Source: Acidobacteriota bacterium
GTDB taxonomy: Bacteria > Acidobacteriota > Thermoanaerobaculia > Multivoradales > JAGPDF01
Assembly (NCBI GenBank): GCA_012521815.1
Contig: JAAYLR010000141.1
Span: 414 to 64,413 of the forward strand
DNA: 64,000 nt
Direction: 5' to 3'
Part shown: piece after piece, positions 11,920-28,838 of the stretch
Layout of the letters: every line of letters starts with the position of its first letter
Position numbering within the stretch: position 1 is the first letter of the stretch
Made by a program: the position numbers and the translations under genes
The notes under the pieces: model-generated
What the model saw: the letters and a program-made list of their open reading frames with translations, nothing else
What the model was told of the DNA's origin: nothing
The model's database searches: none

Positions 11920-12336
11920 TCAGCCGCGCTTCCTCGTCACCGCCCGCTTCCGCGCGGGGGGCGCGGCCGCCGACGCGGCGGGGGCGTGCCGCTCCTCCTC
12001 CAGGCGGAAGAGGATCCGGCCGCAGCGCTCGCACGTCTCGAGATCGCTCTGGCGGCTCGCCATCGCCGTCGGACGCACCGTGAAGCAGCCGAGACAGGTG
12101 CCACCGAGCGAGGGGACGACCGCCCGCGGATGGCGCTGCCGTATCCGCTCGTAGAGGCGCAGGACCCTGGCGTCGATCCGCGCCGCCGCCTCGGCCCGGG
12201 CCTCGCTCAGGCGCGTCGACTCCCCGAGCGGGAAGCCGAGCGCCGCCTCGCGCTCGCGCATCGCGGCCTCGCCGAGGTCGGCGAGCAGGGCGTCGAGCTC
12301 CTGCAGGACGAGGAGTTCCTGGATCTGTGGGTTCAT
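11920..12336 (-). CDS. zinc-ribbon protein (coiled-coil + C4 zinc ribbon, COG1579-like)
   Basis: 138 aa; coiled-coil N-terminal part then CLGCFTV...(16)...CERCGRIL (CxxC...CxxC). The ATG overlaps the stop of the upstream EIIA gene (ATGA). The long track ORF 11920..13512 is an upstream shadow extension. Confidence 0.7.
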   Translation of the reverse strand: MNPQIQELLVLQELDALLADLGEAAMREREAALGFPLGESTRLSEARAEAAARIDARVLRLYERIRQRHPRAVVPSLGGTCLGCFTVRPTAMASRQSDLETCERCGRILFRLEEERHAPAASAAAPPARKRAVTRKRG

Positions 12337-12833
12337 CGCGCGAGCGCCTCCTGGATGCGGGGCCGGATCAGCTGCCGCGCGAGCTTCTCCAGATCGTCGA
12401 AGCTCTCGACGGCGAGCAGCCGTTCGCGGTCGGTGTCGTGGTGCACCGCCGCCACCAGCACCCCGAGCAGCGGCAGATACCCCTCGCCGCCCACGCCGTA
12501 CGGCGCCACGACGAGGAAGACGCGCTCGACCGGGTGACCATCGACGGCCTGGAAGTCGAGGCCGCGGGCGAGCCGGGCGACGACGAGCGTCGTCCGCTGC
12601 GCGACCATCGAGCGGGCGTGCGGGATCGCGATCCCATGTCCGAGGCCGGTGGTGCCGAGCGCCTCGCGCTCGACGAGCAGGCGCTGGAAAGCGTTGCGGT
12701 CGTGGATCGCTCCCGCCGCGCCGAGGGCGTCGGCGAGCGCGGCGAAGAGCTCCTCCTGGCTGGAGACTTCGAGCGCGGGCAGGAAGAGGCCCGCCTCGAT
12801 CCGGATGGATGTGGCGATGTCGATCGGCTTCAC
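12333..12833 (-). CDS. PTS EIIA type-2 protein (PtsN / EIIA-Ntr-like)
   Basis: 166 aa. Phospho-His region GLGHGIAIPHAR in an EIIA(Fru/Mtl/Ntr) fold pattern. GTG start with GGGAGG SD, 18 nt downstream of the hycFG-like stop. Confidence 0.8.
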   Translation of the reverse strand: MKPIDIATSIRIEAGLFLPALEVSSQEELFAALADALGAAGAIHDRNAFQRLLVEREALGTTGLGHGIAIPHARSMVAQRTTLVVARLARGLDFQAVDGHPVERVFLVVAPYGVGGEGYLPLLGVLVAAVHHDTDRERLLAVESFDDLEKLARQLIRPRIQEALAR

Positions 12834-12851: not shown

Positions 12852-13631
12852 CTAACGGCTCTCGCCCGCGGATTCCAGACGCCCGAGGAGCCGCAGCATC
12901 CCGTCGAGCATGGTGAGGGGATGCGGCGGACAGCCCGGCACCCAGAGATCGACCGGCACCACCGCGCCGGCGCCGCCGGCGACCTCGGGGTGCCCCAGAT
13001 ACGGTCCCCCGGCGATCGCGCAGGCGCCGATGGCGATCACGATCTTCGGCGGCGCCACCGCGTCGTACGTCTTGCGCAGCGCGAGGCGCATGTTCTCGCT
13101 CACCGGCCCGGTCACGATCAGGCCGTCGGCGTGGCGCGGCGAGGCGACGATCCGGATGCCGAAGCGGCCGATGTCCCAGGCCAGCGTGGAGAGGACGTTG
13201 ACGTCCGCCTCGCAGGCGTTGCAGCCGCCGGCGCTCACCTGCCGGAGCTTGAGCGAGCGGCCGAAGAGGCGGCGGAGCCGTTCGTCGAGCGCGGTGGCGA
13301 GCGCGAGCTCCCGCTCGGCGCTCACCTGCAGCTCCTCGCGCCGGCGCACCGCGAGCCGGTGATCGCCGCCCCAGGTGATCGCGCCCTCCGGGCAGGCGGC
13401 GGCGCACTCCGCGCAGAAGAGGCAGCGGCCGAGATCGATCGCGATCGCGGGCGAGAGCGAGATCGCCTCCGTGGGGCAGACCTCCACGCAGTCGCGGCAA
13501 CCGTCGCGGCACCGCTCGGGCGCGAGCAGCGGACGGCCGCGGAAGCGGTCCGGCAGCGGCGGCGGCGGCCCGTCGGGGTAGGCGAAGGTCCGGTGCCCCT
13601 GATGGAGTCGCGCGCGCAGCAGTCTGATCAT
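12852..13631 (-). CDS. fused 2x[4Fe-4S] ferredoxin (HycF/NuoI-like) + hydrogenase/complex-I small subunit (HycG/NuoB-like)
   Basis: N-terminus has CRDGCRDCVEVCP and CLFCAECAAACP (two CxxCxxCxxxCP motifs). C-terminal part has SAGGCNACE, IGACAIAGGPY and VPGCPPHP, matching HycG/NuoB cluster-binding motifs. Confidence 0.85.
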   Translation of the reverse strand: MIRLLRARLHQGHRTFAYPDGPPPPLPDRFRGRPLLAPERCRDGCRDCVEVCPTEAISLSPAIAIDLGRCLFCAECAAACPEGAITWGGDHRLAVRRREELQVSAERELALATALDERLRRLFGRSLKLRQVSAGGCNACEADVNVLSTLAWDIGRFGIRIVASPRHADGLIVTGPVSENMRLALRKTYDAVAPPKIVIAIGACAIAGGPYLGHPEVAGGAGAVVPVDLWVPGCPPHPLTMLDGMLRLLGRLESAGESR

Positions 13632-13653
13632 CGGTGGCGGTTCTCCCCGGCGC

Positions 13654-15168
13654 TCAGAGGTCGTGTCCGCAGTAGGACAGGTTGAAGCTCTTGTTGCAGA
13701 GCGGGAAATCGGAGATCTGCCCGCCGCGCAGCGCCCGGGCGAGCCCGCTCCAGTTGTGGAACGACGGGTCGACGATCTTGTAGCGCGCGAAGCGCCCCGC
13801 GCGATCGGTGAGGGCGACGTGGCAGATCTCGCCGCGCCACCCCTCGACGAGCGACACCGCGAGGCTCTCGGGCGCGAGCCGCCCCACTGGCACCCGCACC
13901 TCCCCCTCCGGAAGCGCCGCGAGCGTGGCGTGGAGGAAGGCGAGCGAGTGCTCCATCTCGAGCCAGCGGACCCGGGCGCGGGCGTGGACGTCGCCGGAAG
14001 CCGCCGTGGCCACCGCCATCGACTGGTCGCGGTACGCCCCGCCGGGGTGATCGCGACGCAGGTCCCGGTCGACCCCCGAGGCGCGCGCCGCCGGCCCCAC
14101 CAGGCCGAGCGCGAGGGCGTCCTCCCGCGGCACCACGCCGGTCGTCTCGAACCGCTCCATGACCGACGAGCTCTCCCAGAGCAGCTCGATGGCGGAGCGG
14201 GCGTCGGTGAAGGTGCGGTCGAGGCCGGCCCGCAGGCGCTCGCGCCGCGCCGGCTCGAGGTCGAAGCCGCTGCCCCCCGGGCGGACGAGGCCGCGTCCGA
14301 AGCGCGAGCCGCAGAGCTCGGCCGAGAGGTTCAGGAAATCGCCCCTGATCCGCCCGCAGAAGGAGGCGGTCGGCAGGTAGCCGACGTCGCCGGCGAGCGC
14401 GCCGAGGTCGCCGGTGTGGTTCGCCAGCCGCTCGAGCTCGAGCGCGATCGCGCGCAGCGCCGCTCCCCGCGGCGGTGCCGCGGTGCCGGCGAGCGCCTCG
14501 ATCAGCTCGCAGCCCGCCGTCGCGTGGCCGATCGTCGTGTCGCCGGCGGAGGTCTCCAGGTAATGGATCGTGCGCCGGTCGGGCCCCCCGATGAGCGCCC
14601 GCTCCACCCCCCGGTGCTGGTAGCCGAGCCGGATCTCGAGGTGGAAGACCTGCTCGCCGTGGCACTGGAACCGGAAATGCCCGGGCTCGATCACCCCGGC
14701 GTGCACCGGCCCGACCCCGACCTCGTGGACCTCCTGCCCCTCGACCCGGTAGAGCTCGCCGGTACCGGGCAGCGCGGGGGCCGGCGCGCCCGCCGCGGGT
14801 GCGACCAGCGGTGGCTGCGAACGCACCGGCGCCGGCGCCGGATGCCCCTCCGCGACGAGCCCGAACTGCTCGGCGAGCTCGCGTTCGAAGAGGTGGAGCT
14901 GCGGACACGCGGCGGCTCGGGAGGGGAACGCCGGGCCGGTGAGCGTCGCCCGGGCAAGCGCGATCCCGGCGCGCGCGTCGTCGGCGAGCACCGCCACGAG
15001 CTCGACCCCCGAGGGGCGCGGCACCCCGAACCAGGCGGCCACCCGCAGCCCGCCGTCGCACGCCGTGACGACGGCGTCGGCCAGCTCGGCCACCGGCAGC
15101 GCCGGAATCTCCCGCCGCGCCACCGCGACCCCCGCCGTGGTCCGCAGGAAGCGGTCGGCGCCGCTCAT
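13654..15168 (-). CDS. NuoC-NuoD-fusion / HycE-like large subunit, apparently lacking NiFe-binding cysteines
   Basis: 504 aa. NuoC-like N-terminal domain, then GPVHAGVIEPGHFRF...LGYQHRGVE (NuoD/large-subunit signature). Where L1 (RxCGxCxxxH) is expected it reads SAGDTTIGH. The C-terminus ends FPLCNKSFNLSYCGHDL rather than DPCxxCxxR. ATGA coupling to the upstream gene; GGAGGGGG SD. Confidence 0.85.
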   Translation of the reverse strand: MSGADRFLRTTAGVAVARREIPALPVAELADAVVTACDGGLRVAAWFGVPRPSGVELVAVLADDARAGIALARATLTGPAFPSRAAACPQLHLFERELAEQFGLVAEGHPAPAPVRSQPPLVAPAAGAPAPALPGTGELYRVEGQEVHEVGVGPVHAGVIEPGHFRFQCHGEQVFHLEIRLGYQHRGVERALIGGPDRRTIHYLETSAGDTTIGHATAGCELIEALAGTAAPPRGAALRAIALELERLANHTGDLGALAGDVGYLPTASFCGRIRGDFLNLSAELCGSRFGRGLVRPGGSGFDLEPARRERLRAGLDRTFTDARSAIELLWESSSVMERFETTGVVPREDALALGLVGPAARASGVDRDLRRDHPGGAYRDQSMAVATAASGDVHARARVRWLEMEHSLAFLHATLAALPEGEVRVPVGRLAPESLAVSLVEGWRGEICHVALTDRAGRFARYKIVDPSFHNWSGLARALRGGQISDFPLCNKSFNLSYCGHDL

Positions 15169-16598
15169 CGTCCCCCTCCGAGCGCCGCCGCAGCCTCGGT
15201 CAGCAGCCCGCGCAGCGACGCCGGCAGATGGAGGCCGAGCAGGAGCACGAGCGCGACGAGCAGGAGCGGCGGCAGGTAGCCGCGCGCCCGGTCGCGGTAC
15301 GCCGACTGCCGGGCGTAGGCCGTCGGCCGTCCCTGGAGAGCGGCGAAGGTGGTCGTCCCCATCCCGGCGAAGACGAGCAGCAGGAGGGCGACGAAGAGGG
15401 CGGCCAGCCAGCCGCGCCCGGCGGCCAGCGCCACCTGCACGATCAGCAGCTTGCTCACGAAGAGGCCGAACGGGGGCGAGCCGGTGATCGCGAAGAGGCC
15501 GAAGAGGAAGACCGTGCCCGAATACGGCAGGCGCCGCAGCGCACCGCGGATCTCGCCGGTCGTCTTGCCGCCGAACGCCCGGTGGAGGTTCCCGGCCGCG
15601 AGGAAGAGCCCGGCCTTGCCGAAGGCGTTGAGCACGAGGTGCAGGAGCGCGGCGAAGGTGGCGGCGGCGCCGAGGCCGGCGGCGAGCGCGAGGATCCCCA
15701 TCTGCTCGACGCTCGAGTAGGCGAGCATCCGCTTCAGATCCCGCTGCCCGAGCAGCAGCGCGCCGGCCACCGCCATCGAAAGGAGGCCGATGGCGATGAG
15801 CAGGCGGTTCGCGTAGATCCCCTCGCCCGCCGCCGCGGTGAGCTGGGTGAAGCGCAGCAGGGCGAGGAAGGCGCAGCTCGTCAACCCCCCGGCGAGCACC
15901 GCGCCCACCACGCCGGGCGCCTCGCCGTAGGCGTCCGGCTTCCAGGTATGCATCGGCGCGAGCCCCATCTTCGTGCCGTAGCCGACGAGCAGCAGCGCGA
16001 AGCCGGTGCGCAGCCAGGGACGCGAGAGCTCGCCGGCGCGGGCGAGCAGGTCGGGGAAGAGGAGCGACGCCTCGCCGCCGCCGAGCAGCGCCGCGTAGCC
16101 GACGAAGAACGACCCGAGCAGCGCCAGCGCGATCCCCACCGAGGAGATCAGCAGGTACTTCCAGGTGGCCTCGATCGATCGCGCCGAGCGGTTGAAGTAG
16201 ACGAGCGGCGCCGAGGCGAGCGTCGTCGCCTCGATCCCCACCCAGAGCAGGCCGAGATGCTGCGCGTACGCCACCAGGCTCATCGCGCCGAGGACGGCGA
16301 GCATGCAGGCGGTGAAGCGGCGATTCTCCCGCTCGGGGCGCTGCTCCAGATAGCCGACCGCGTAGACGGCGCAGACGAGGAAGAGCACGCTCACGAGCAG
16401 CAGCAGGAGCCGCCCGGGGGCGTCGAGCCGGAGCCAGTCGCCGCCGCTCCCCGCGGGGGCGCGCAGCGCGAGCCCGACGAGGAGGAGGTGGATGGCCGCG
16501 CCGAGCGCGAGCAGCCGCGGCCGCCAGAGCCGGGAGGGCGTCAGGTAGACGGCGACCGCCAGGGCCAACGGCACGACGACGGGCAGCGGCAGGAGCAC
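15165..16598 (-). CDS. NuoM/NuoN-like proton-pumping membrane subunit (HyfF-like)
   Basis: 477 aa, polytopic; conserved antiporter-like block LGLAPMHTWKPDAYGEAP and others; GTG start 2 nt after the upstream stop. Confidence 0.85.
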   Translation of the reverse strand: MLLPLPVVVPLALAVAVYLTPSRLWRPRLLALGAAIHLLLVGLALRAPAGSGGDWLRLDAPGRLLLLLVSVLFLVCAVYAVGYLEQRPERENRRFTACMLAVLGAMSLVAYAQHLGLLWVGIEATTLASAPLVYFNRSARSIEATWKYLLISSVGIALALLGSFFVGYAALLGGGEASLLFPDLLARAGELSRPWLRTGFALLLVGYGTKMGLAPMHTWKPDAYGEAPGVVGAVLAGGLTSCAFLALLRFTQLTAAAGEGIYANRLLIAIGLLSMAVAGALLLGQRDLKRMLAYSSVEQMGILALAAGLGAAATFAALLHLVLNAFGKAGLFLAAGNLHRAFGGKTTGEIRGALRRLPYSGTVFLFGLFAITGSPPFGLFVSKLLIVQVALAAGRGWLAALFVALLLLVFAGMGTTTFAALQGRPTAYARQSAYRDRARGYLPPLLLVALVLLLGLHLPASLRGLLTEAAAALGGGR

Positions 16599-16600
16599 GG

Positions 16601-17242
16601 CTACTCCCGCAGCTGCGAGAGCCGCCGCGTGTCGAGCGAGGCGAACTCCCGGTTGATGTGGTGGATGATGATGCTGAGCACGAAGATGCCGACGAAGAGG
16701 TCGAGGAGCACCCCGGCCTCGACGAGGAACGGCATCGCCTCGACGAGCAGCAGGCCGAAGGCGAAGATCCCGTTCTCCAGCACGAGGTAGCCGACCACCT
16801 GGGTGATCGCCTTGCGCCGGGTGACGAGCAGGAGGAGCCCGGCGGCGACGGTGGCGAGCGCGGCCGGCACGAGCAGCGGCGCGAGCCGCTCCTCGGCGAA
16901 CGGGAGCCGCCCCGCCGCCGCCACCGCGAGCGCGGTGGTGAGGGCGCCGAGGACGAGCGACGGGAGCAGGCCGAGCAGCGGCTCGACCTCGCGCCGGATC
17001 GCCACCTGCCGGAGCGCCCGGAAGAGCATCGCCGGGATCAGCCAGGCCTTGAGCACCACGCTCGCGAGGGCGAGTACCAGCACCCGGTTGCTCGCCTCCC
17101 CGTGGGCGACGATCGCGATCACCCCGAGCAGCAGCCCCTGGAGGGCGACCGCCCGCACCATCGAGCCGATCCGGCCGGCGCCAAGCGCCACGAGGTTCAC
17201 GAGCAGGAGGCCGGCGACGAGGATCTCGAGCAGCGATTGCAT
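16601..17242 (-). CDS. HyfE-like small membrane subunit (NuoK-related)
   Basis: 213 aa hydrophobic protein with HyfE-like length and topology; 4-nt gap to the upstream gene. Confidence 0.75.
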   Translation of the reverse strand: MQSLLEILVAGLLLVNLVALGAGRIGSMVRAVALQGLLLGVIAIVAHGEASNRVLVLALASVVLKAWLIPAMLFRALRQVAIRREVEPLLGLLPSLVLGALTTALAVAAAGRLPFAEERLAPLLVPAALATVAAGLLLLVTRRKAITQVVGYLVLENGIFAFGLLLVEAMPFLVEAGVLLDLFVGIFVLSIIIHHINREFASLDTRRLSQLRE

Positions 17243-17246
17243 CCGG

Positions 17247-18194
17247 TCACCTTCCGAGCAGCAGCAGCGCGAAGCCGCAGCTGAGCACCGCGGCGACGAG
17301 CAGCGCCGGCACCCGCAGCAGCCGCAGCCGCGCCATGGTCGACTCCACGACGCCGATCAGCACCGCGACGGCGAGCACGCCGAGGACGAAGAAGCCGAGG
17401 CCGAGCCACCCCCGGACGGTGGCCGCCGGCACGAGGATGTGCATCAGGAGCACGTCGAGCACCAGCAGCTTGACCGCCGCGCCGTACTCCACGAGGCCGA
17501 AGAGCGGGCCGCTGTGGTCGAGGACCATGACCTCGTGGATCATCGTCAGCTCGAGGTGGGTCGCCGGGTCGTCGACCGGGATCCGGGCGCACTCGGCGAG
17601 CAGGACGATCAGCACCCCGGCGGCGACGAGCGCGAGCGCCACGGTGCTGTCGCGCCAGAGCTCCCCTTCCGGCGCCCGCAGCATGTCCTCGAGCTGCAGC
17701 GAGCCGGAGAGGCGCGCGAGAGCGAAGAAGGCGAAGAAGAGCGCCGGCTCGGTGAGCCAGGCGAAGCCGACCTCCCGGGCCGCCCCCATCCCCTCGAACG
17801 GCGAGCCGGTGTCGAGCGCCGCCGCGGCGGTGAAGAAGCGGCCGAGCGCGAGCAGGTAGGCGAAGAGCACGAAGTCGCCGGCGAAGGAGATCGGCGCGTC
17901 GAACGGCCCGAGCGGCACCACCAGCCCCGCCATCACCGCGGTGACGACCGCGAGTACCGGCGCGAGGGCGAAGACGCCGGTCGTCGTCGCGCTCAGCGCG
18001 AGCTCCTTGCGCGCGAGCTTGGCGAGATCGCGGTACGGCTGGACGAGGCTCGGGCCGCGCCGCCCCGCGAAGCGCGACTTCGTCCGCTGGATCACCCCGA
18101 GCAGGAGCGGCGGCAGCAGGAGGAGGACCCCGAGGTGGACCAGGATCTGGCTCAGCGCCACGGCGGACCTCCGGCGGCGTGGCTCACGAGCCAC
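17247..18194 (-). CDS. NuoH-like membrane subunit (HycD/HyfC-like)
   Basis: Aligns by eye to E. coli HycD (…RVARARLHNRRGPGVLQEYRDIIKLLGRQ vs …QRTKSRFAGRRGPSLVQPYRDLAKLARKE; ...LDTGSPF...). The true start is probably a few codons inside (near VALSQIL); the first ~11 Arg-rich residues are doubtful. Confidence 0.8.
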   Translation of the reverse strand: MAREPRRRRSAVALSQILVHLGVLLLLPPLLLGVIQRTKSRFAGRRGPSLVQPYRDLAKLARKELALSATTTGVFALAPVLAVVTAVMAGLVVPLGPFDAPISFAGDFVLFAYLLALGRFFTAAAALDTGSPFEGMGAAREVGFAWLTEPALFFAFFALARLSGSLQLEDMLRAPEGELWRDSTVALALVAAGVLIVLLAECARIPVDDPATHLELTMIHEVMVLDHSGPLFGLVEYGAAVKLLVLDVLLMHILVPAATVRGWLGLGFFVLGVLAVAVLIGVVESTMARLRLLRVPALLVAAVLSCGFALLLLGR

Positions 18195-20223
18195 CGAGCC
18201 TTTCCACGGGCCACCACGGCTGCAGGCTCACGAGCAGCAGGATCACGAGCGCGATCACGACGTAGAGGAGGTACTGCTGGAGGCTCCCCTGGTGGTAGCG
18301 GCGCAGCCGCTCGCTCAGCCGCACGAGCCACCGCACCCCGGGGCGCAGGAGCCGCTCGAGCACGCTGTCGGCGATCTCGGAGTGGAAGCTGCTCGCCTCC
18401 GGGAACGGCCCCTCGATCCGCGGCCAGCGGAAGCGGGGGGCGAGCACCCAGCCGAAGCGCGAGGTGATCAGCTCGGCGAACGACGAGGCCGTGTACTGCA
18501 GCCGCGGCGAGGCGCCGGCGAAACCGCAGTCCCAGGTCGGCAGCTCCGGCTGGCGTTCCCGGGCCCGGCGGCAGAGCGGGGCGAGCCGCAGCGAGATCAG
18601 GGCGGTGAGGAGGATCAGGAGGGCGGCGACGACCGCGAGCCGGCCGAGCGGCAGGAACCGCCCCCAGCCGAGGAGCGCCCCCGTGTCCTCCGCCCAGGCG
18701 GCGATCCCGCGATCGACCGCCGGCGCGAAGAGGCCGGGGGCGATACCGATCGCCACGCAGGCCGCGGCGAGGAGCGCCATCGGCCGGAGCATCGGCGCCG
18801 GTGCCTCCTTCGCCGCCGCGGCGGCCTCCGAGCGCGGGGTGCCGAGGAAGACGATGCCGTAGACCTTCACGAAGCAGGCGACCGCGAGCGCTCCGGTGGC
18901 CGCCAGCGCCGCCGCCGGCAGCGCGGCCCAGGCCGGGCCGGGGCCGAGCGCCGCCCGGGCGAGCCCGAGGAAGATCGCCAGCTCGCTCACGAAGCCGTTG
19001 AGCGGCGGCAGCGCACAGATCGCCACCGCGCCGACGAGGAAGAGCCCGGCGGTGGCCGGCATCCGCTTCGCGAGCCCCCCCTGGAGGTCGATCTCCCGGC
19101 TGCCGGTGGCGTGGAGGACCGAGCCCGCGCCGAAGAAGAGGAGCGACTTGAAGAGCGCGTGGTTCCAGACGTGGAGCAGGCAGCCGGCCATTCCGAGCAC
19201 CACCCAGTCGGCGCGGCCGGTGGCGCGCCCGGCCATCGCGAGCCCGAGGCCGAGGAGGATGATCCCGATGTTCTCGATGCTGTGGTAGGCGAGCAGCTTC
19301 TTCAGATCGTGCTGCGCGAGGGCGAAGACGACACCGAAGAACGCCGAGAGCCCGCCGGCGGCGAGCAGGACGACGCCCCAGGAGAGCGGCGGCGCCGCCA
19401 CCAGCCCGAGGGTCCGCACGAGCCCGTAGATCCCCATCTTGAGGACGACCCCCGACATCAGCGCCGAGACGTGGCTCGGGGCGCTCGCGTGGGCGTCGGG
19501 GAGCCACGAGTGGAGGGGCATCACCCCCGCCTTGATCCCGAAGCCGACGAGCGCGAGCGCGAAGAGCGCGGTGAGCGCCTTCGGCGCGGCGGTGGCCGGG
19601 ATCGCACCGAACGCGAAGCCGCCGCCGAGCTGCGCCTGGAGGGCGAAGAGCGCGACGAGGCAGAGCAGCGCCGCGTGGCTGTACAGCAGATAGGTCCAGC
19701 CGGCGGCGCGCACCTCGGCCCGCGCCTCCTCGGTGACCACGAGGAAGTAGGTCGCGAGCGCCATCGTCTCCCACGCGATCAGGAACGAGAAGCCGTCGCG
19801 GGCGGCGAGCAGCAGCAGGAGGCTCGCGAGCGCGAGGCCGTAGCTGAACTGGAGCCGCCGGCCGTGACGCGGGTGGCGGCGGGGATCCCAGTAGGTGCGG
19901 CCGTAGACCGCCCCGAGGCCGCCGACGAACAGGACCGGCAGCGCGAAGAAGCCGCTGAGGGCGTCGCCCCCGAGCTGCCCTTCGCCGAGGAAGAGCCCCG
20001 GCAGCCGCAGCGCGGCGGGTGCGGAGGCGGCGAGCAGCGCCACCGCGCCGGCGATCCCCACCGCGCAGCCGGCGAGCGTGAGCCGCACCGTCCAGCGCGA
20101 GCCCGACAGCGAGCGCCGCGGCAGGAGCAGCGCCGGCACCCCGCTGAGCGTGAGCACGAAGGCGGCGCCGAGCAGGAGCAGGAGCCCCGCGCGGGCGGCG
20201 AGGGGGCCTTCGAAGCCGCTCAT
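18184..20223 (-). CDS. NuoL-like antiporter-type membrane subunit (HyfB/HycC-like)
   Basis: 679 aa from MSGFEGPLAARAGLLLLL; conserved blocks WLPDAHASAPSHVSALMSGVVLKMGIYG and HALFKSLLF. ATG at 20223 overlaps the stop of the 31-aa HTH ORF (ATGA). The track ORF starts 69 codons earlier in non-coding-looking sequence. Confidence 0.85.
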   Translation of the reverse strand: MSGFEGPLAARAGLLLLLGAAFVLTLSGVPALLLPRRSLSGSRWTVRLTLAGCAVGIAGAVALLAASAPAALRLPGLFLGEGQLGGDALSGFFALPVLFVGGLGAVYGRTYWDPRRHPRHGRRLQFSYGLALASLLLLLAARDGFSFLIAWETMALATYFLVVTEEARAEVRAAGWTYLLYSHAALLCLVALFALQAQLGGGFAFGAIPATAAPKALTALFALALVGFGIKAGVMPLHSWLPDAHASAPSHVSALMSGVVLKMGIYGLVRTLGLVAAPPLSWGVVLLAAGGLSAFFGVVFALAQHDLKKLLAYHSIENIGIILLGLGLAMAGRATGRADWVVLGMAGCLLHVWNHALFKSLLFFGAGSVLHATGSREIDLQGGLAKRMPATAGLFLVGAVAICALPPLNGFVSELAIFLGLARAALGPGPAWAALPAAALAATGALAVACFVKVYGIVFLGTPRSEAAAAAKEAPAPMLRPMALLAAACVAIGIAPGLFAPAVDRGIAAWAEDTGALLGWGRFLPLGRLAVVAALLILLTALISLRLAPLCRRARERQPELPTWDCGFAGASPRLQYTASSFAELITSRFGWVLAPRFRWPRIEGPFPEASSFHSEIADSVLERLLRPGVRWLVRLSERLRRYHQGSLQQYLLYVVIALVILLLVSLQPWWPVERLGGS

Positions 20224-20315
20224 GCCTCGCTCACCACGCGCTGCTCGATCCAGCGATAGATCGTCTTCTCGGAGACGTCCAGCAGGCGGGCGGCATCCCT
20301 GACGAGGAGCTTCAT
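20220..20315 (-). CDS. 31-aa mini helix-turn-helix ORF (excisionase/MerR-type HTH_17-like), translationally coupled to the complex operon
   Basis: MKLLVRDAARLLDVSEKTIYRWIEQRVVSEA: a canonical 'LL.vs..T.YRwi..' HTH with the usual C-terminal wing missing. Its stop overlaps the next ATG (ATGA). Absent from the track because it is under 60 aa. No strong SD. Confidence 0.35.
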   Translation of the reverse strand: MKLLVRDAARLLDVSEKTIYRWIEQRVVSEA

Positions 20316-20350
20316 GGAGCAGATGTCGCCCCAGGGGGACGACAATGGAC

Positions 20351-20379
20351 AATCTATCCCGCTCCCACTCCCACTTCAA
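20351..20379 (-). promoter_or_regulatory. candidate sigma70-type promoter for the mini-HTH / complex operon
   Basis: On the minus strand: TTGAAG (20379-20374), a 17-nt spacer, TAGATT (20356-20351), about 40 nt upstream of the HTH ATG. An AATCAtTGATT inverted repeat lies about 50 nt further upstream (20432-20442). Confidence 0.3.
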
Positions 20380-20517
20380 CGGATGACAGGCAATGGCGAA
20401 AGCGGACCTCGCCCCGTCCAATCCGATCAAATCATTGATTCAAAGGAGTTTTCTCGCTCGTCGGCGCGCCCGGCACGCGACGGGAGGACGCTCACCCTCA
20501 CCCCTCCGCAAATCGCC

Positions 20518-20575
20518 TGGCACCTTCCGCCGGCAAATCCGGCAAATCGGCTGGCACCTTTCGGGCACCTTTCGG
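20518..20575. repeat. structured tandem direct-repeat array in the 290-bp intergenic region upstream of the operon
   Basis: GGCACCTTCCG (20519-20529), CCGGCAAAT x2 (20530-20547), GGCACCTTTCG x2 perfect tandem (20553-20574). Likely regulator binding sites. Confidence 0.5.
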
Positions 20576-20607
20576 AAAGGGACGGGAGGGGCTGGCGGGA
20601 GCCGGAG

Positions 20608-21051
20608 CTACCGGAGCGGGGAGACGAAGACGGTGAGCCCCTCGACCCGTTCGACGCGCACCCGGGCGCCGGCCGGAAGGGGGCGGGAGGTGGTGAGGCG
20701 GGCGTTCCACGACTCGCCGGCGAGCTCGACCCGGCCGAGCCGGCCGGGGGCGAGCGCTTCGAGCGTCACCCCTTCGCTCCCCACCAGCGGGTCGACCTTC
20801 CTCCGGGCGACGGCCGCCGCGGCCGCCCGGCCCTTTCCGCGGTGCCTCGTGAGCACCAGCGCCAACCCCACCGCGAAGAGGAGGGCGAAGAGCGCCCCCG
20901 GCGCCCACCCCGGCAGGCCGGGCACCGCGAAACGGACGAGGCCGGTGAGCAGCGCCGCGCCGCCGCCGAGCAGCAGGAGCACCCGCCAGCGCCGGTGGAA
21001 AGCGCCGAGGAGCAGGAGGAGTCCGAGGATCAGCCAGTACCAGTGAGACAT
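20608..21051 (-). CDS. NfeD-like membrane protein (short form, C-terminal OB-fold)
   Basis: 147 aa. Two N-terminal TM helices, then a beta-rich C-terminus (GRLGRVELAGESWNARL...VRVERVEGLTVFVSP) typical of NfeD. No SPFH/stomatin partner in the window. Confidence 0.65.
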   Translation of the reverse strand: MSHWYWLILGLLLLLGAFHRRWRVLLLLGGGAALLTGLVRFAVPGLPGWAPGALFALLFAVGLALVLTRHRGKGRAAAAAVARRKVDPLVGSEGVTLEALAPGRLGRVELAGESWNARLTTSRPLPAGARVRVERVEGLTVFVSPLR

Positions 21052-21135
21052 GGAGCGCTCCGGAGGGAAAGTCGGTGTCGCGCGGATGCTACACCGCCTC
21101 CGGAGGGGCTTCCGCGACCGCCGCCGCGGCCGGGA

Positions 21136-22971
21136 TCAGCCGTGCTCGGCGAGCAGCCGCAGCACCCGCTCGCCGTACCGCTCGAGCTTCTTCGCCCCGA
21201 TCCCCGGCACCTCGGCGAGCTGCGCGAGAGTGGCCGGCACGCGGAGCGCGATCTCGCGCAGCGTCCGGTCGTGGAAGACGAGGTACGGCGGCACCCCGGC
21301 CGCCGCCGCGAGCTCCTTGCGCAGGGCGCGGAGCGCCTCGTACCGCGCCGCGTCCGGGAGGAGCTCGGCGGCCGGGGGCGCCGTCGCCACCTTCCGCCGC
21401 CGGCCCTCGGGACGCCGGAGCACCCGCAGCGCGAGCCGCTCCTGCCCCCGGAGCACCGGCCAGGCGCGCGGGGCGAGGCGCAGCACGCCGAAGCCGTCGG
21501 TCTCGATCTCGAGGTAGCCACGCGCCACGAGCTGGCGGAAGACGGTCCGCCACTCCTTCGCGTCGAGCTCGCCGCCGACCCCGAAGGTCGGCAGCCGGTC
21601 GTGCCCGTGACGCTGGATCTTCTCGGTCGCCTCGCCGCGCAGCAGGTCGACGAGATGCATCGCCCCGAACCGCTCGCCGGTCCGGTAGACCGCCGAGAGC
21701 GCCTTCTGCGCCGGCACCGTGGCGTCCCAGGTGGCGGTCGGCTGGAGGCAGTTGTCGCAGTTGCCGCAGGGCTCCGGGAGCTCCTCGCCGAAGTAGCGCA
21801 GCAGCACCCGCCGCCGGCACTCGGTGGTCTCGCCGTAGCCGACGACCGCGTCGAGCTTCCGGCGCTCGATCTGCTTCCGCTCCGCCTCGGCGCCACCGGC
21901 GTCGATGAGCCGCCGCAGGTTCACGACGTCCTGCAGCCCCCAAACCATCCAGGCGTCGGCGGGCTCGCCGTCGCGCCCGGCGCGGCCGGTCTCCTGGTGG
22001 TACGCCTCGAGGCTCCGCGGCAGGTCGAGGTGGGCGACGAAGCGGACGTCCGGCCGGTCGATCCCCATCCCGAAGGCGATCGTCGCCACGACCACCACGC
22101 CGTCGTCGGAGCGGAACCGGTCGAGCACCGCCCGGCGCGCCTCCGGCTCCATCCCGGCATGGTAGGCGAGCGCCGGCACCCCGTGGGCGGTGAGCCAGTC
22201 GGCGGTCTGCTCGACCTTCGCGCGGGAGAAGCGGTAGACGATCCCGCAATGACCGGCGTGCTCCGACGCGAGGAAGGCGAGGAGCTGCCGGCCGGGGTCG
22301 CCCAGCTTGTCGACCACGCGGTAGCGGAGGTTCGGCCGGTCGAAGCTCGCGAGGAAGAGCCGGGCCCCGTCGAGCCCGAGCCGGGCGACGATCTCGCGCC
22401 GGGTCGGCGGGTCGGCGGTGGCGGTCAACGCGAGCCGCGGCACCCCGGGGAAGCGTTCGGCGAGCACGGAGAGGCCGAGGTACTCGGGGCGGAAATCGTG
22501 CCCCCACTGGGAGACGCAGTGCGCCTCGTCGATCGCGATCAGCGCGAGCGGCACGCCGTCGAGCAGCGCGAGGAACCGCTCGGTCAGCAGCCGCTCCGGC
22601 GCCACGTAGAGCAGGTCGAGCTCGCCGCGCCGGAGCCGGCGCTCGACCCCGACGAGCTCGCCGGGGGGGAGGTTCGAGTGGCAGGCGGCGGCGGCGACCC
22701 CGAGCTCGGCGAGCGCCGCCACCTGATCCTGCATGAGCGCGATGAGCGGCGAGACGACGACCCCGGTGCCCGACCGTACGAGCGCGGGCAGCTGGTAGCA
22801 GAGCGACTTGCCGCCGCCGGTCGGCCAGACCACGAAGGCGTCGCGCCCCGCGAGGAGCGCGGCCACGACCTCCTCCTGCCCGGCGCGGAAGCCGGGGAAG
22901 CCGAAGACCTCGGCGAGGGTCGCGCGGGCGCGTTCGAGGGTGGGCGGATCGCATTCCACGGGGGTGAGCAT
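21136..22971 (-). CDS. recQ: ATP-dependent DNA helicase RecQ
   Basis: FGFPGFRAGQEEVV...WPTGGGKSLCYQLPAL...DEAHCVSQWGHDFRPEY; zinc-binding CGNCDNC; RQC and HRDC-like C-terminus. Start taken at MLTPVE (22971). Confidence 0.9.
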   Translation of the reverse strand: MLTPVECDPPTLERARATLAEVFGFPGFRAGQEEVVAALLAGRDAFVVWPTGGGKSLCYQLPALVRSGTGVVVSPLIALMQDQVAALAELGVAAAACHSNLPPGELVGVERRLRRGELDLLYVAPERLLTERFLALLDGVPLALIAIDEAHCVSQWGHDFRPEYLGLSVLAERFPGVPRLALTATADPPTRREIVARLGLDGARLFLASFDRPNLRYRVVDKLGDPGRQLLAFLASEHAGHCGIVYRFSRAKVEQTADWLTAHGVPALAYHAGMEPEARRAVLDRFRSDDGVVVVATIAFGMGIDRPDVRFVAHLDLPRSLEAYHQETGRAGRDGEPADAWMVWGLQDVVNLRRLIDAGGAEAERKQIERRKLDAVVGYGETTECRRRVLLRYFGEELPEPCGNCDNCLQPTATWDATVPAQKALSAVYRTGERFGAMHLVDLLRGEATEKIQRHGHDRLPTFGVGGELDAKEWRTVFRQLVARGYLEIETDGFGVLRLAPRAWPVLRGQERLALRVLRRPEGRRRKVATAPPAAELLPDAARYEALRALRKELAAAAGVPPYLVFHDRTLREIALRVPATLAQLAEVPGIGAKKLERYGERVLRLLAEHG

Positions 22972-23069
22972 CTCGCAGATCGTCCTTTCCGCACAGCAGA
23001 CGCGACGGCGGCGCGCCATCGCTCGCTGCCGTCGGAGGCGCGGGATAAGATGCCCCTGCTGGTGCGCCC

Positions 23070-23891
23070 GTGATCGTCGCCTTCGTCAGCAAGAAGGGGG
23101 GCGTCGGCAAGACGACGAGCGCGGTCAACGTGGCGGCCGTGCTCGCCCGTCTCGGCCATCGCACCCTGCTCGTGGACCTCGACAGCCAGGCCTCGGCCTC
23201 GCTCTCGCTCGGGGTCGCCCGCGCCGACCTCGCCCCCTCCGCCTACGACCTCCTCTTCGCCAAACGGCCGGCCGCCGAGATCGTGCGCCGCACCGCGATC
23301 CCGAACCTCGATCTCGTGACCGCCTCGGTCGATCTCGTCGCCGCCGATCTCGATCTCGCGCCGCTGCGCGACCGGGAGCTCGTCCTCGGCCGCCAGCTCG
23401 CGCCGCTCCGCGCGGCGTACGAGTGGATCCTCCTCGACTGCCCGCCGGCGCTCTCGGTCGTCCCGCTCAGCGCGCTCGCCGCCGCCGACGGCTGCGTCGT
23501 GCCCGTGGTCCCGCAGCCGCTCGCCTGGGAAGGGGTCGATCTCCTCCTCGCCGCGGTGAGCCGCCTGCGCGAACGGTTCGGCACCGGCCCCCGCCTCCTC
23601 GGCCTCCTCCTGACGATGGCCGACAGCCGCACCCGCCTCGCCCGCGAGACGACCCGTCTCCTCCGCGAGCGCTTCGGCGACCGCCTCTTCACCGCCGCGG
23701 TGCCGGTCTGCACCCGCCTGGCCGAAGCCCCCGCCTGGGGCCGCCCCCTCGTCGAAGCCGAACCCGAATCCCGCGCCGCCCTCGCCTACGCCGCCGCCGC
23801 CCGCGAGCTCATCGACCGGAGCGCGAGCGGCGAGACCGGCCCGGCCTCGAAGATCGGCGTGCTCGGAACCGACCCGGCCCGGCACGGATAG
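23070..23891 (+). CDS. ParA/Soj-family ATPase (orphan, no parB adjacent)
   Basis: GTG start; deviant Walker A VSKKGGVGKTTSAVNVAA; 273 aa. Confidence 0.85.
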   Translation: MIVAFVSKKGGVGKTTSAVNVAAVLARLGHRTLLVDLDSQASASLSLGVARADLAPSAYDLLFAKRPAAEIVRRTAIPNLDLVTASVDLVAADLDLAPLRDRELVLGRQLAPLRAAYEWILLDCPPALSVVPLSALAAADGCVVPVVPQPLAWEGVDLLLAAVSRLRERFGTGPRLLGLLLTMADSRTRLARETTRLLRERFGDRLFTAAVPVCTRLAEAPAWGRPLVEAEPESRAALAYAAAARELIDRSASGETGPASKIGVLGTDPARHG

Positions 23892-23903
23892 GATCTCCCC
23901 GCC

Positions 23904-25304
<1,401 letters not shown>

Positions 25305-25400
25305 GCGCCGCCCGGCCCCCGCCGCGGTCGGCCGGGGGTGGCGTTCCCCCCATCCCCCGCTACCGGGCCGAAGGCGATAGCATCGGCGGCGGAGGCCCCG

Positions 25401-26627
25401 ATGAACGTGCCCTCGCGTGCCACCACCCACCCCGTCCTGGTCGGCGGGGTGCGGATCGGCGGCGGCGCCCCGGTCGTCGTCCAGTCGATGACCGCGACCG
25501 ACACCGCCGACGTGGCGGCCACCGTGCGCCAGTGCCACGAGCTCGCCCGCGCCGGCTCGGAGCTGGTACGGGTGACCGTGAACGTGCCCGCCGCCGCGGC
25601 GGCGGTGCCCGAGATCCGGCGCCGGCTCGACGACCTCGGCTGCGACGTGCCGCTCATCGGCGACTTCCACTACAACGGCCACCTCCTCCTCACCGAGCAC
25701 CCCGACTGCGCCGCGGCGCTCGCCAAGTACCGGATCAACCCCGGTAACGTCGGCTTCGGCGACCGGCGCGACGAGCAGTTCGCGACCATCTGCCGGATCG
25801 CGGTCGAGCGGGGCAAGCCGGTGCGGATCGGCGTCAACGCCGGCTCGCTCGATCAGGAGCTGGTGATGGCGAAGATGCAGGAGAACACCGACCGCGGGCT
25901 CGGGCGGAGCGCCGAGGAGATCTACGCCGACTGCATGGTGATCTCCGCGCTCCAGTCGACCGAGGCGGCGCTCGCCTGCGGCCTGACCGAAGAGCAGATC
26001 GTCATCTCCTGCAAGGTCTCCCGCCCGCCGGAGCTCGTCACCGTCTACCGGGAGCTCGCGCGCCGCACCCGCCAGCCGCTCCACCTCGGGCTGACCGAGG
26101 CGGGGATGGGGATCAAGGGCGTCGCCTGGTCGGCGGCGGCGCTCGGGGTGCTGCTCGCCGAGGGGATCGGCGACACGATCCGCGTCTCGCTCACCCCGCG
26201 CCCCGGCGGCGACCGGCGCGACGAGGTCGAGGCCGCCTGCGAGATCCTGCAGGCGCTCGGCCTGCGCGCCTTTGCCCCGTCGGTGACCGCCTGCCCCGGC
26301 TGCGGGCGGACCACCTCGACCACCTTCCAGGAGCTCGCGCTGCGCGTCCAGGAGTACGTCCGCGAGCGGCTCCCCGCCTGGAAGCGGGAGCGGGCGGGGG
26401 TCGAGGAGCTCAAGCTGGCGGTCATGGGCTGCGTCGTCAACGGCCCCGGGGAGTCGAAGATGGCGAACATCGGCATCTCGCTGCCCGGCACCGGCGAGGC
26501 TCCGACCTGCCCCGTCTTCGTCGATGGCCGCAAGCACGCCACGCTGAGCGGCAGCCCCGAGGAGCTCGCCACGCAGCTGATCGCGATCATCGAGGAGTAC
26601 GTCTCCACCCACTACCCGAGGCACTGA
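25401..26627 (+). CDS. ispG: 4-hydroxy-3-methylbut-2-en-1-yl diphosphate synthase (flavodoxin), IspG/GcpE, long form with insertion domain
   Basis: [15 protein letters not shown]..., C-terminal CPGCGRTTS...[10 protein letters not shown]. Start at MNVPSR (25401); the track ORF begins 21 codons earlier. Confidence 0.9.
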
Positions 26628-26639
26628 GAGGAAGCGAAC

Positions 26640-28838
26640 GTGACCATCGACCCGCTCTCCCCCGCGAGCTTCGTCAACGAACTCGGCCTCGCCTGGAAGC
26701 AGCTCTGGATCTACCCTCCCGGCCATCCGGCGCGGGCGGGCTCGGTGGAACGCGCCTACCGCGCGCTCGCGCGCCTGCTCGGCCCCACCGGGCTGTTCGC
26801 GCTCGGCGTCGAGCGCGACGCCTTCGTCTGCGGACAGGAGCGCAACGACAGCCCGAGCGCCCAGCGCCTCGCCGGCCAGCTCTTCGGCCGCAACGTCGCG
26901 GTGGTCTCGTTCGCGGACGGGATCGACGTCGCCGAGCTCGAGCGCTTCCTCAACCTGATCAACCCCGACCCGGGCCAGACCCGCAGCAGCCGGTTCTGGG
27001 AGGAGATGGACGCCCTCGGCTGCCCGCACGTGACGCTGCAGCCGGTCGACTACTCCGGTCTCGAGCTGACCGATGACCTCACGGAGCCCGAGCCCGCGAA
27101 GAAGGAGGCTCCGCCGAAACCGGGCGACCTCTGGCAGGAGATCCTCGAGCAGCTGCTCGCCGGCCGGAAGCTCGGCGCCGAGGGCCTGAGCGGCGCCGCG
27201 GCGACGCTGGCCGAGGTCATCAGCGTGATCGAGAAGCTGCTCGAGGCGGCGCTCGCCTCCGGGGCGATCCGGGGCGAGGTGCCGCTGAGCGAAGAGCAGG
27301 CGGCCGTCCGGGCCAGGGCGACGATCAACTCGCTCGCCGAGCAGATCGCGGCGGTGGTGGCACGCCATCTCGACCTCATCGGCCCCGAAGCGTTCGCCGC
27401 CGAGCTCCTGCAGATCGCCCATCTCCTGCGGGCGCTGCCGGCCGAGCTGCGGCCGCCGATCCTCGACGCCGTGCTCCGGCGGGTCGTCGCGCTCGCCGAA
27501 CCCGCCGACGCGCTCGGCCTGCTCGCCGCCTCCACCTCGGCCGCCGAGGTGCTCGCCTCGACGCGCCGGCTCGCCAGCCGGGGACTGCGCCTCACCGACA
27601 CCGTCCTGCAGACGCTCGAAGCGCTCTTCCTCCGGACGGCTCCTCCCGGTCCCGCCCCGGCGACCGGGGCCGACGCGGTCGCCCGCCTCTTCGCGCTCGG
27701 CGACATCGAGGGGCCGCTTCCCGGCGGTGCCGGGGAGCGCTTCCTCCTCGCGCTGCCCCAGCGCCGCGATCCGCTGACCGCCCCCCTGCCCGAGCTGGAG
27801 AAGCGGCAGCGCAGCCTCGGCGCCGCCGAGCGGGAGGACGCCCTCGCCGAGACGCTGCTCCAGCTCGCCTTCACGGCCACGGCGGGCGACCGCGCGGCGG
27901 CGCTCGCCAACCGGCTCGAAGCGCTCTTCCGGGGCCTGCTGCGCGCCGGCCGCCTGGAGGCCGCCGAGGGGATCGTGGCCGCCGTGGCCGCCGCCGGGCA
28001 CTCCGGCCGCGACGAGGCGCGACAGCGCCGGGCCGGGCGGCTCGCCGAGCAGCTCGCCGGGCCGGGCGCCATGGCGGCGCTCGCCGAGCTGATCGGGCAG
28101 CTGCCGGCCGAGGAGCGCGAACGGCCACTGCGGCTGGTGCGCGCGCTCGGCGATCCGGCGATCGCGCAGCTGCTCGACCAGCTCTCCGCGGAGCAGGATC
28201 TGACCCGGCGCCGGCACCTCTTCGACTTCCTCGTCGGCCTCGGCCCGGCGCTGACGCCCCACGCCGTGCGCCTGCTCGACGACCCCCGCTGGTTCGTCGT
28301 CCGCAACATGCTGGCCCTCCTCTGCGAGACCGGCGACCGGAGCCAGGCCGCCGCGATCCGCAACGCGGCGCTCCACGCCGACGCGCGGGTGCGGCTGGAG
28401 GCGGTCCGGGCGCTCGCCGCGCTCGACCCGCAGCTCCCCGCCGCGCTCGTCGACCGCCTGCTCGCCGACCCGGACTCCCGGGTCGCCGAGTTCGCGGCGC
28501 GCACCCTCGCCGCCCGCACCCGCCACGGGCGCGACACCCTGGTGGCGCTCCTGCGGCGCCGCGACCTGTTCGGCCGCCAGCGCGCCCGCCGCCTCCAGGC
28601 GCTGCGCACGCTCGGCGCCCTCGGCGACCCGGAGGTCCTGCCGCTCCTGCGGCGCTCCTTCCGCGGCGGCCTCTTCGGGGTGAGCGTCGAGGAGCGCCGC
28701 GTCGCCTACGCAGCGCTCGCGGGCTACCCCCCCGCCGCGCGCCGGCCCTGGCTCGAACAGGGGCGCCGGAGCGGCGACACCGAGATCCGTCGTACCTGCG
28801 AACAGCTGCTCGCCACGTCCGAGGAGGTGTCCTCGTGA
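26640..28838 (+). CDS. HEAT-repeat protein with a conserved N-terminal IYPxxHP module
   Basis: GTG start with GAGGAAG RBS; 732 aa. C-terminal HEAT/PBS-lyase-like repeats (DPRWFVVRNMLALLCETGDR, DARVRLEAVRALAALD, DPDSRVAEFAARTLAA). N-terminal ~60 aa are homologous to the N-terminus of the next gene. Confidence 0.7.
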   Translation: MTIDPLSPASFVNELGLAWKQLWIYPPGHPARAGSVERAYRALARLLGPTGLFALGVERDAFVCGQERNDSPSAQRLAGQLFGRNVAVVSFADGIDVAELERFLNLINPDPGQTRSSRFWEEMDALGCPHVTLQPVDYSGLELTDDLTEPEPAKKEAPPKPGDLWQEILEQLLAGRKLGAEGLSGAAATLAEVISVIEKLLEAALASGAIRGEVPLSEEQAAVRARATINSLAEQIAAVVARHLDLIGPEAFAAELLQIAHLLRALPAELRPPILDAVLRRVVALAEPADALGLLAASTSAAEVLASTRRLASRGLRLTDTVLQTLEALFLRTAPPGPAPATGADAVARLFALGDIEGPLPGGAGERFLLALPQRRDPLTAPLPELEKRQRSLGAAEREDALAETLLQLAFTATAGDRAAALANRLEALFRGLLRAGRLEAAEGIVAAVAAAGHSGRDEARQRRAGRLAEQLAGPGAMAALAELIGQLPAEERERPLRLVRALGDPAIAQLLDQLSAEQDLTRRRHLFDFLVGLGPALTPHAVRLLDDPRWFVVRNMLALLCETGDRSQAAAIRNAALHADARVRLEAVRALAALDPQLPAALVDRLLADPDSRVAEFAARTLAARTRHGRDTLVALLRRRDLFGRQRARRLQALRTLGALGDPEVLPLLRRSFRGGLFGVSVEERRVAYAALAGYPPAARRPWLEQGRRSGDTEIRRTCEQLLATSEEVSS

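Follow-up and report, generated by a model that had tools for sequence, protein, structure and literature searches.

The window analysed here is a 64,000-nucleotide (nt) stretch of contig JAAYLR010000141.1 from an Acidobacteriota bacterium (assembly GCA_012521815.1, positions 414 to 64,413 of the forward strand). On its minus strand, a 31-codon open reading frame (ORF) heads an operon predicted to encode an Ehr-type complex, a term used in the sense of PMC6349859 and PMC7894505 (energy-converting hydrogenase-related complexes). Our analysis indicates that this mini-ORF is the remnant of a gene for a regulator of ~230 residues, in which an excisionase-type helix-turn-helix (HTH) domain of the HTH_17 family was fused to an EIIA domain, that it was left behind by an in-frame deletion, and that the peptide it encodes has no selected function (probability about 0.87). 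The relic is a case of ordinary gene decay, not a new micro-protein, and is not to be counted as a regulator.

An earlier inspection of the DNA letters, here called the sequence-only reading, had described the mini-ORF as a minus-strand frame of 31 codons that encodes an excisionase/MerR-type HTH cut just past the recognition helix and is coupled through ATGA to the first gene of the complex, an ehrA-like gene for a NuoL/HyfB-like protein. Location, strand, length and overlap are as claimed, by sequence and translation. The start codon occupies 20315-20313 and the frame ends ...GCA TGA, with the TGA at 20222-20220 sharing 3 bases with the NuoL/HyfB-like ATG at 20223-20221, which makes an overlap of 4 nt. 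The parts of the mini-ORF are as follows.

20220..20315, minus strand: mini-ORF of 31 codons, MKLLVRDAARLLDVSEKTIYRWIEQRVVSEA followed by a stop; from sequence and translation, the HTH_17 profile and a family profile described below.
20241..20315, minus strand: codons 1-25, homologous to the N-terminus of the regulator (helix 1, turn, recognition helix); from tblastn.
20220..20240, minus strand: the six tail codons RVVSEA plus stop, downstream of the deletion junction and in frame with the ancestral stop; from DNA alignment.
20220..20223, minus strand: ATGA in which the stop codon of the remnant overlaps the start of the ehrA-like gene, inherited from the full-length regulator gene.

By profile, the 31-residue product (31-mer) belongs to the HTH_17 family of Pfam, with 28.6 bits against a curated cut-off of 27. 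The alignment covers profile positions 4-25 of 51 and thus falls short of a complete domain, which bears out the description of an HTH truncated behind its recognition helix. The third-position statistics also agree with coding, with a GC content of 0.65/0.35/0.90 at the three codon positions. Public assemblies already call the mini-ORF as a gene, labeled "helix-turn-helix domain-containing protein" or as excisionase type. An AlphaFold2 model of the single sequence is one continuous confident helix from residue 2 to residue 30 with no helix-turn-helix; this is weak evidence, as a single confident helix is the typical AlphaFold2 outcome for short peptides.

The plus-strand ORFs that cover the region, for example 17941-20259 and 20314-23073, are high-GC shadow ORFs, as the sequence-only reading had held for the one opposite the mini-ORF. 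Together with a third long ORF at 22584-28526 on the minus strand, they measure 772, 919 and 1980 amino acids (aa) and lie antisense to or overlap real genes. Their translations are rich in arginine, proline and glycine, and they are shadow ORFs and not genes. Shadow ORFs of such length are expected in DNA of ~73% GC.

The ancestry of the mini-ORF is apparent from related loci. A scan of the NuoL-like protein against one genome per species gave 80 loci (L001-L080). The nearest, L001, is a Thermoanaerobaculia metagenome-assembled genome (MAG) whose NuoL-like protein is 73% identical; the other loci belong to Acidobacteriota, Planctomycetota, Myxococcota, Verrucomicrobiota/Lentisphaerae/Kiritimatiellales and Spirochaetota. 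In tblastn analyses with the 31-mer as a query, more than 50 of the 80 loci matched, at E values down to 2e-11 and mostly ~700 nt upstream of the NuoL-like match, so that this N-terminus is conserved in syntenic operons and the HTH_17 match of the peptide is more than chance. The nearest Thermoanaerobaculia loci share 84-96% identity with residues 1-25. Every match extends into an ORF of 225-256 residues, e.g. MKLLVKDAARLLGVSEKTIYRWIKQGSIPAYRLQEQYRFNRAELLEWATS...GDGIAIPHVRNP..., and the longer versions with a wing that the sequence-only reading had proposed to look for thus exist as HTH_17 + PTS_EIIA_2 proteins at the same position in the relatives.

These full-length proteins contain a complete HTH_17 domain (residues 5-52, profile positions 4-51 of 51, 61-65 bits) and a PTS_EIIA_2 domain at residues 84-217. 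The latter is closest to PtsN/EIIA-Ntr structures (1a6j, 3urr; E ~1e-15), the G-I-A-I-P-H segment included, and its conserved histidine motif reads GDGIAIPHVRN. With a family hidden Markov model (HMM) built from 52 full-length relatives, 64 of the 80 loci gave a full-length copy and one gave a copy that runs off its contig; the other 15, some of which have no upstream sequence, gave none. A truncated regulator occurs in the window alone, where the match is confined to HMM positions 1-28.

The HTH-EIIA gene usually lies directly upstream of the operon, as it does in the nearest relatives, and in a minority of loci it is on the opposite strand. Where the regulator abuts ehrA, its stop codon overlaps the start codon in the EhrA frame as NTGA in 13 of 34 loci. 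Among the 10 adjacent loci of Thermoanaerobaculia/Acidobacteria, 7 have this overlap (ATGA in L042, L019, L003, L033, L016 and L023; GTGA in L001), and L002 and L006 have TGATG in its place. Three further loci (L007, L009 and L010) have ehrA-like genes without any regulator ORF upstream.

The deletion junction was located in a DNA alignment of the window with L001, L042, L019, L003, L002 and L006. Window and relatives match over the promoter-like region upstream and on into the gene as far as codon 25 (…ATC TAT CGC TGG ATC GAG CAG); in the window there then follow 18 nt and a stop/start overlap equivalent to the end of the full-length gene in the nearest relatives. The alignment indicates that about 200 codons (~600 nt) were lost in frame from the regulator gene of the window. 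The lost part corresponds to residues ~26-226. It takes in the rest of the HTH domain (wing and third helix), the linker, and all of the EIIA domain, including the GIAIPH histidine. The window gene retains the homologous N-terminus and the position 5' of ehrA with the overlap, and lacks the EIIA domain that would complete an HTH_17-EIIA protein.

The junction can be placed no more finely than codons 23-26. Residue 24 of the 31-mer is E, where the Thermoanaerobaculia relatives have K; this K24E difference could be due to a point mutation or to a conserved C-terminal "CER" motif, whose E would then stem from the 3' side of the junction. No microhomology at the breakpoints could be assigned, as the C-terminal tails of the relatives vary too much for the 3' breakpoint to be placed. 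Of the options that the sequence-only reading had offered, the remnant of a larger regulator is the one that agrees with the full-length relatives, the synteny, and the shared frame and stop/start overlap. The claimed coupling to the first complex gene holds as far as the ATGA itself is concerned, not as a peculiarity of the mini-ORF, since the arrangement is ancestral and was taken over from the full-length gene.

The short form is found well beyond the window. In a public assembly collection, 49 indexed blocks contain an exact match to its 31-residue product, and 99 contain one to the NuoL-like protein. Loci at least 99% identical with the same junction are present in several Joint Genome Institute (JGI) metagenomes, in GCA_035449905.1, GCA_018001035.1 and GCA_035451225.1, and in one ENA assembly. 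A sister lineage (L093-L095), 97.85% identical over 20 kb and with the same gene order, has the same deletion and encodes the variant MKLLLKDAARLLDVSVKAIHRWIEQRVVSEA. The deletion is fixed in this species and older than the split from its sister. A metagenome scan with the junction sequence yielded three further contigs, all with the window allele, and no more diverged deletion carriers beyond L093-L095. When 5.8 billion protein clusters were queried with a 41-residue version of the mini-ORF that starts at TTG, the short relatives that matched numbered only three and belonged without exception to this species group: the 31-mer, the 41-residue TTG-start version and the variant MKLLLKDAARLLDVSVKAIHRWIEQRVVSEA. 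On the evidence of that search, mini-HTHs of this type do not form a stand-alone family.

To compare alleles, we set the window against L093, a single pair that differs by five substitutions in the mini-ORF. All five are nonsynonymous (V5L, R6K, E16V, T18A and Y20H, window to L093) and none is synonymous, which gives a proportion of nonsynonymous differences (pN) of 0.071, a proportion of synonymous differences (pS) of 0 and an undefined pN/pS. The 16 neighboring genes have 251 synonymous and 92 nonsynonymous differences (pN 0.0071, pS 0.050, pN/pS 0.14). The mini-ORF departs from these genes (Fisher p = 0.0016; Poisson probability of at least five nonsynonymous differences at the background pN, 1.8e-4) and fits the neutral expectation of 3.5 nonsynonymous and 1.1 synonymous changes. 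Its pN is ten times the background pN and about equal to the background pS.

When the changes are polarized by the relatives, V5L, E16V, T18A and Y20H arose in the L093 lineage, and K6R arose in that of the window. E16, T18 and Y20 lie within the recognition-helix motif "SEKTIYRWI," which is nearly invariant among the full-length proteins. All five changes fall in the upstream 75 nt of the mini-ORF; the tail stretch at 20220..20240, the 21 nt next to the overlap, is identical in both alleles. The dN/dS comparison suggested by the sequence-only reading thus reveals no constraint on the short form in this one allele pair, and the amino acid sequence of the mini-ORF has been evolving at an approximately neutral rate, not preserved by selection. 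That the window copy retains the appearance of a textbook HTH is due only to the short time since the deletion.

Taken together, these results are best explained by the following history. The first gene of the ancestral operon encoded a regulator of ~230 residues in which a winged HTH of excisionase type (HTH_17) was joined to a PtsN-like EIIA. A deletion of ~200 codons then removed the wing and third helix of the HTH, the linker and all of the EIIA domain, sparing the upstream region, the start codon, the first ~25 codons, the six-codon tail and the original stop codon that overlaps the ehrA start. The operon would thereby inherit the transcription and translation signals of the regulator gene, with transcription presumably still from the old regulator promoter. 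Any present role of the remnant would be independent of its sequence: ribosomes that start at the old regulator ATG may stop at the ATGA and go on to reinitiate at ehrA. With the regulator gone, the operon has probably lost its cis-encoded control.

Several points weigh against this account. Both known lineages have an unbroken ORF, and the deletion was in frame. Selection for translational coupling could account for this, and so could chance: the odds for the frame are ~1 in 3, and at the present divergence 96 nt are too few to have gathered a stop. The test for selection compares one allele pair that differs by five substitutions, and its 5:0 pattern and slightly raised rate could be read as positive selection, though they are not significantly off neutrality. 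The window allele is still identical to the Thermoanaerobaculia consensus at 23 of 25 residues. Finally, the promoter-like site of the window (described below) matches 8 of 12 consensus positions, below the threshold of the consensus scan.

One alternative concerns what the remnant may still do. It could be kept as a coupling ORF whose sequence is immaterial, with ehrA translation needing ribosomes from the upstream ORF and selection preserving start, frame and ATGA. This refines the deletion account and does not contradict it, and we consider it a serious possibility at somewhat less than even odds. The stop and start codons do overlap in the window as ATGA, in an arrangement that is ancestral and common in relatives (13 of 34 adjacent loci, with TGATG in others); the deletion is in frame with the overlap intact in both lineages; and the 21 nt beside the overlap are unchanged between alleles that have 5 changes in the upstream 75 nt. 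By eye, no well-spaced Shine-Dalgarno sequence precedes the ehrA ATG in the window, the GAGG being only 1 nt from it. On the other hand, the ehrA-like genes of L007, L009 and L010 manage without an upstream regulator ORF, frame retention has a one-in-three chance, and the time since the deletion is short. A bolder version, in which the in-frame deletion spared promoter, start codon and ATGA overlap and was itself adaptive, freeing the Ehr operon from PTS-Ntr-type control, with the relic retained as a ribosome-delivery device for ehrA and the nonsynonymous excess possibly tuning it, is in our view unlikely.

Other readings assign the peptide or the gap a different meaning. The sequence-only reading had raised a micro-protein that titrates a partner; such a minimal HTH, binding DNA or titrating perhaps the EIIA protein encoded at the operon end, would be backed by the Pfam HTH_17 score, by an intact ORF called in many assemblies, by the EIIA-only gene in the same operon, and in principle by five nonsynonymous substitutions that might be adaptive. 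It predicts purifying selection, however, and is disfavored because the one diverged allele known shows none: five nonsynonymous and no synonymous changes stand against the pN/pS of 0.14 in the neighbors, pN is tenfold the background, and the sister allele alters three near-invariant residues of the recognition helix. The match also ends at profile position 25 of 51 with the wing and third helix gone, the AlphaFold2 helix over residues 2-30 lacks a helix-turn-helix (weak evidence), the 5.8 billion clusters contain no other short members, and L001 has both a full-length regulator and a stand-alone EIIA, so a split-protein logic is superfluous; we regard a functional micro-protein as very improbable. 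The related proposal that the operon was inserted into a single gene, so that its HTH half now lies at the operon start and its EIIA half at the end, was rejected, as L001, L011, L023 and L043 carry the full-length fusion plus a stand-alone EIIA. By this comparison, the stand-alone EIIA gene of the window (12333-12833) is a paralogue rather than the missing part of the regulator in a new place. The sequence-only reading had also offered a regulatory leader peptide. For one that acts by attenuation or ribosome stalling and senses a metabolite or amino acid supply, a short ORF directly 5' of a long operon would be the natural place. An attenuation-type leader requires space and RNA structure between leader and gene. 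The mini-ORF overlaps the structural gene by 4 nt, with no room for terminator or antiterminator structures; it has no terminator-like site in 20150-20700, no Rfam match in 20100-20750 and no run of a regulatory codon, and its sequence is fully accounted for by descent from the regulator gene, which leaves this idea with even less credence than the micro-protein. Least probable of all is an error of assembly or sequencing that collapsed the region in an organism whose gene is really full-length. The window is probably MAG-derived, as its exact matches all lie in metagenome contigs and MAG records; an artefact is nonetheless excluded by the identical junction in many assemblies that were made independently, from different samples and by different pipelines (JGI, NCBI, ENA), and the diverged sister lineage has the same junction.

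The deletion account leaves the full-length regulator as the more interesting outcome. In the loci compared here, an HTH_17-EIIA (PtsN-like) gene accompanies Ehr-type operons in most relatives across at least 5 phyla. It is apparently uncharacterized, with no description of the link between such a regulator and Ehr operons found in the searchable literature. The association suggests that the enigmatic Ehr-type complexes are under the control of a phosphotransfer signal.

Several variations on this arrangement were observed. In one Planctomycetota MAG, a single Ehr-like operon is preceded by two tandem HTH-EIIA paralogues (L040:6506-7977; 244 and 230 aa). In a Pirellulaceae-type subgroup (L020-L022, L024, L036, L037, L044, L045, L052, L055 and L074), the large and small subunit genes are on the opposite strand, upstream of the membrane-subunit genes, and the HTH-EIIA gene is also on the opposite strand in most (not in L021 and L024), which makes the locus divergent. 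In L004, L008, L011, L043, L025, L031, L032, L035, L049, L063, L077 and others, ~2.0-2.1 kb separate the regulator gene from the best NuoL-like match. This gap suggests an extra gene, possibly for a paralogous membrane subunit, that the window operon does not have.

The region upstream of the mini-ORF retains traces of the old regulatory signals.

20351..20379, minus strand: promoter-like site TTGAAG (20379-20374)-17 nt-TAGATT (20356-20351); from positional homology with relatives.
20337..20350, minus strand: GTCCATTGTCGTCC, degenerate counterpart of a TGTCCA..TGTCCA / GGACA-N-TGTCC operator-like motif; from alignment with relatives.

In the alignment, the regulator promoter of the relatives at this position is of the TTGACA-17-TAGAAT type or a close variant. 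A sigma-70 promoter and terminator scan of 20150-20700 gave nothing at threshold, so the putative promoter of the window is assigned solely by positional homology; an Rfam scan of 20100-20750 gave no match at E <= 1. A GGACA-N8-14-TGTCC inverted repeat spans the spacer and -10 element of a TTGACA-17-TAnAAT promoter in 13 of 50 upstream regions, versus 1.1 expected from shuffles (examples are L079:9160-9200, L065:6585-6625 and L003:4845-4890), and a second TGTCCA often comes after it. The repeat is a candidate operator through which the HTH-EIIA protein would regulate its own gene. The motif is degenerate in the window (20337-20379, minus strand) and in L001, and the GTCCATTGTCGTCC site has one further A-to-G change in L093.

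Farther upstream, at 20508-20574, the spacer contains direct repeats, GCAAATCG[C/G]CTGGCACCTT[C/T]CG on the plus strand, at a distance of 34 nt from each other, and one additional copy of GGCACCTTTCG. In the sister lineage L093 the array is shorter by 20 nt, and a similar motif is present in L001. A sigma-54 reading of the intergenic repeat (GGTGCCAGGCGATTTGC) was rejected by eye, since the GG/GC spacing misfits TGGCAC-N5-TTGC on either strand.

The operon downstream of the mini-ORF consists of six complex subunit genes, all on the minus strand. These and the flanking genes are as follows.

18184..20223, minus strand: ehrA-like gene, NuoL/HyfB-type membrane subunit of 679 residues, the first complex gene; from Pfam and NCBIfam.
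12852..18194, minus strand: remainder of the operon after the ehrA-like gene; from Pfam, NCBIfam and a cysteine check.
17247-18194, minus strand: NuoH-like subunit; from Pfam and NCBIfam.
16601-17242, minus strand: HyfE-like subunit; from Pfam and NCBIfam.
15165-16598, minus strand: NuoN/HyfF-like subunit; from Pfam and NCBIfam.
13654-15168, minus strand: NuoD/HycE-like large subunit of 504 residues; from Pfam, NCBIfam and the cysteine check.
12852-13631, minus strand: ferredoxin + NuoB-like small subunit; from Pfam and NCBIfam.
12333..12833, minus strand: stand-alone PTS_EIIA_2 gene of 166 aa at the operon end; from Pfam (1.2e-22).
11920-12336, minus strand: CT398/CdsZ-like zinc-ribbon coiled-coil gene of 138 residues, its start overlapping the EIIA stop; from Pfam and NCBIfam.
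20608-21051: NfeD-like gene, upstream of the mini-ORF beyond a 292-nt spacer.

The ehrA-like product matches Proton_antipo_M of Pfam (2.6e-50) and "hydrogenase 4 subunit B" of NCBIfam (2.6e-169), and its start codon is backed by alignment, the relatives beginning at an equivalent NTGA. The 504-residue large subunit has nine cysteines and no C-x-x-C motif anywhere in its length, and therefore no canonical binding of a NiFe center. Subunit set and cysteine check together indicate an Ehr-type hydrogenase-related complex, not a true [NiFe] hydrogenase. Among the 80 loci, the stand-alone EIIA gene is common only to L001 (82% identity), L011, L023 and L043. Gene calls in L093 place the counterparts of the EIIA and CT398/CdsZ-like genes at 17483-17983 and 17980-18396.

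The finding has corrective value, since the public label of "helix-turn-helix domain-containing protein" or excisionase covers a relic unable to form a full DNA-binding domain. It also makes the window species a natural knockout, with an Ehr operon that lacks the usual cis-encoded HTH-EIIA gene, in a group whose close relatives keep it. This pairing of window and relatives is useful for learning what the HTH-EIIA regulator controls.

Among known systems, the closest likeness is to the HTH_17 + PTS_EIIA_2 fusions themselves (L001:9201-9896, L042:9273-9968), with which the window shares position, promoter-like upstream region, stop/start overlap and residues 1-25, whereas its product is without residues ~26-226. 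With the excisionase/MerR-like winged HTHs (PF12728 HTH_17; TIGR01764 "excise"), the mini-ORF shares the core motif LL.VS..TIYRWI above the Pfam threshold, but it holds only the first half of their ~50-residue domains and scores 28.6 bits, compared with 61-65 in the full-length relatives. The domain lost from the window gene is most like PtsN (EIIA-Ntr; PDB 1a6j, 3urr and 4gqx; E 2e-15), G-I-A-I-P-H included; PtsN is a stand-alone EIIA without an HTH, and the mini-ORF retains none of the EIIA domain. The downstream operon resembles Ehr complexes such as Geobacter sulfurreducens EhrA-1/C/L/S (GSU0739-45) in having NuoL-, NuoH-, HyfE- and NuoN-like membrane subunits with large and small subunits, and the window large subunit is without a CxxC to ligate NiFe (PMC6349859, PMC7894505); this likeness concerns the context, not the mini-ORF. 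As a type of event, the window resembles the pseudogene relics that head operons after an internal deletion, in its kept 5' end and expression signals, its lost domains and its neutral codons. Unlike such relics, it arose by a deletion in frame, kept the original stop and overlap, and remains a complete ORF that is annotated as a gene.

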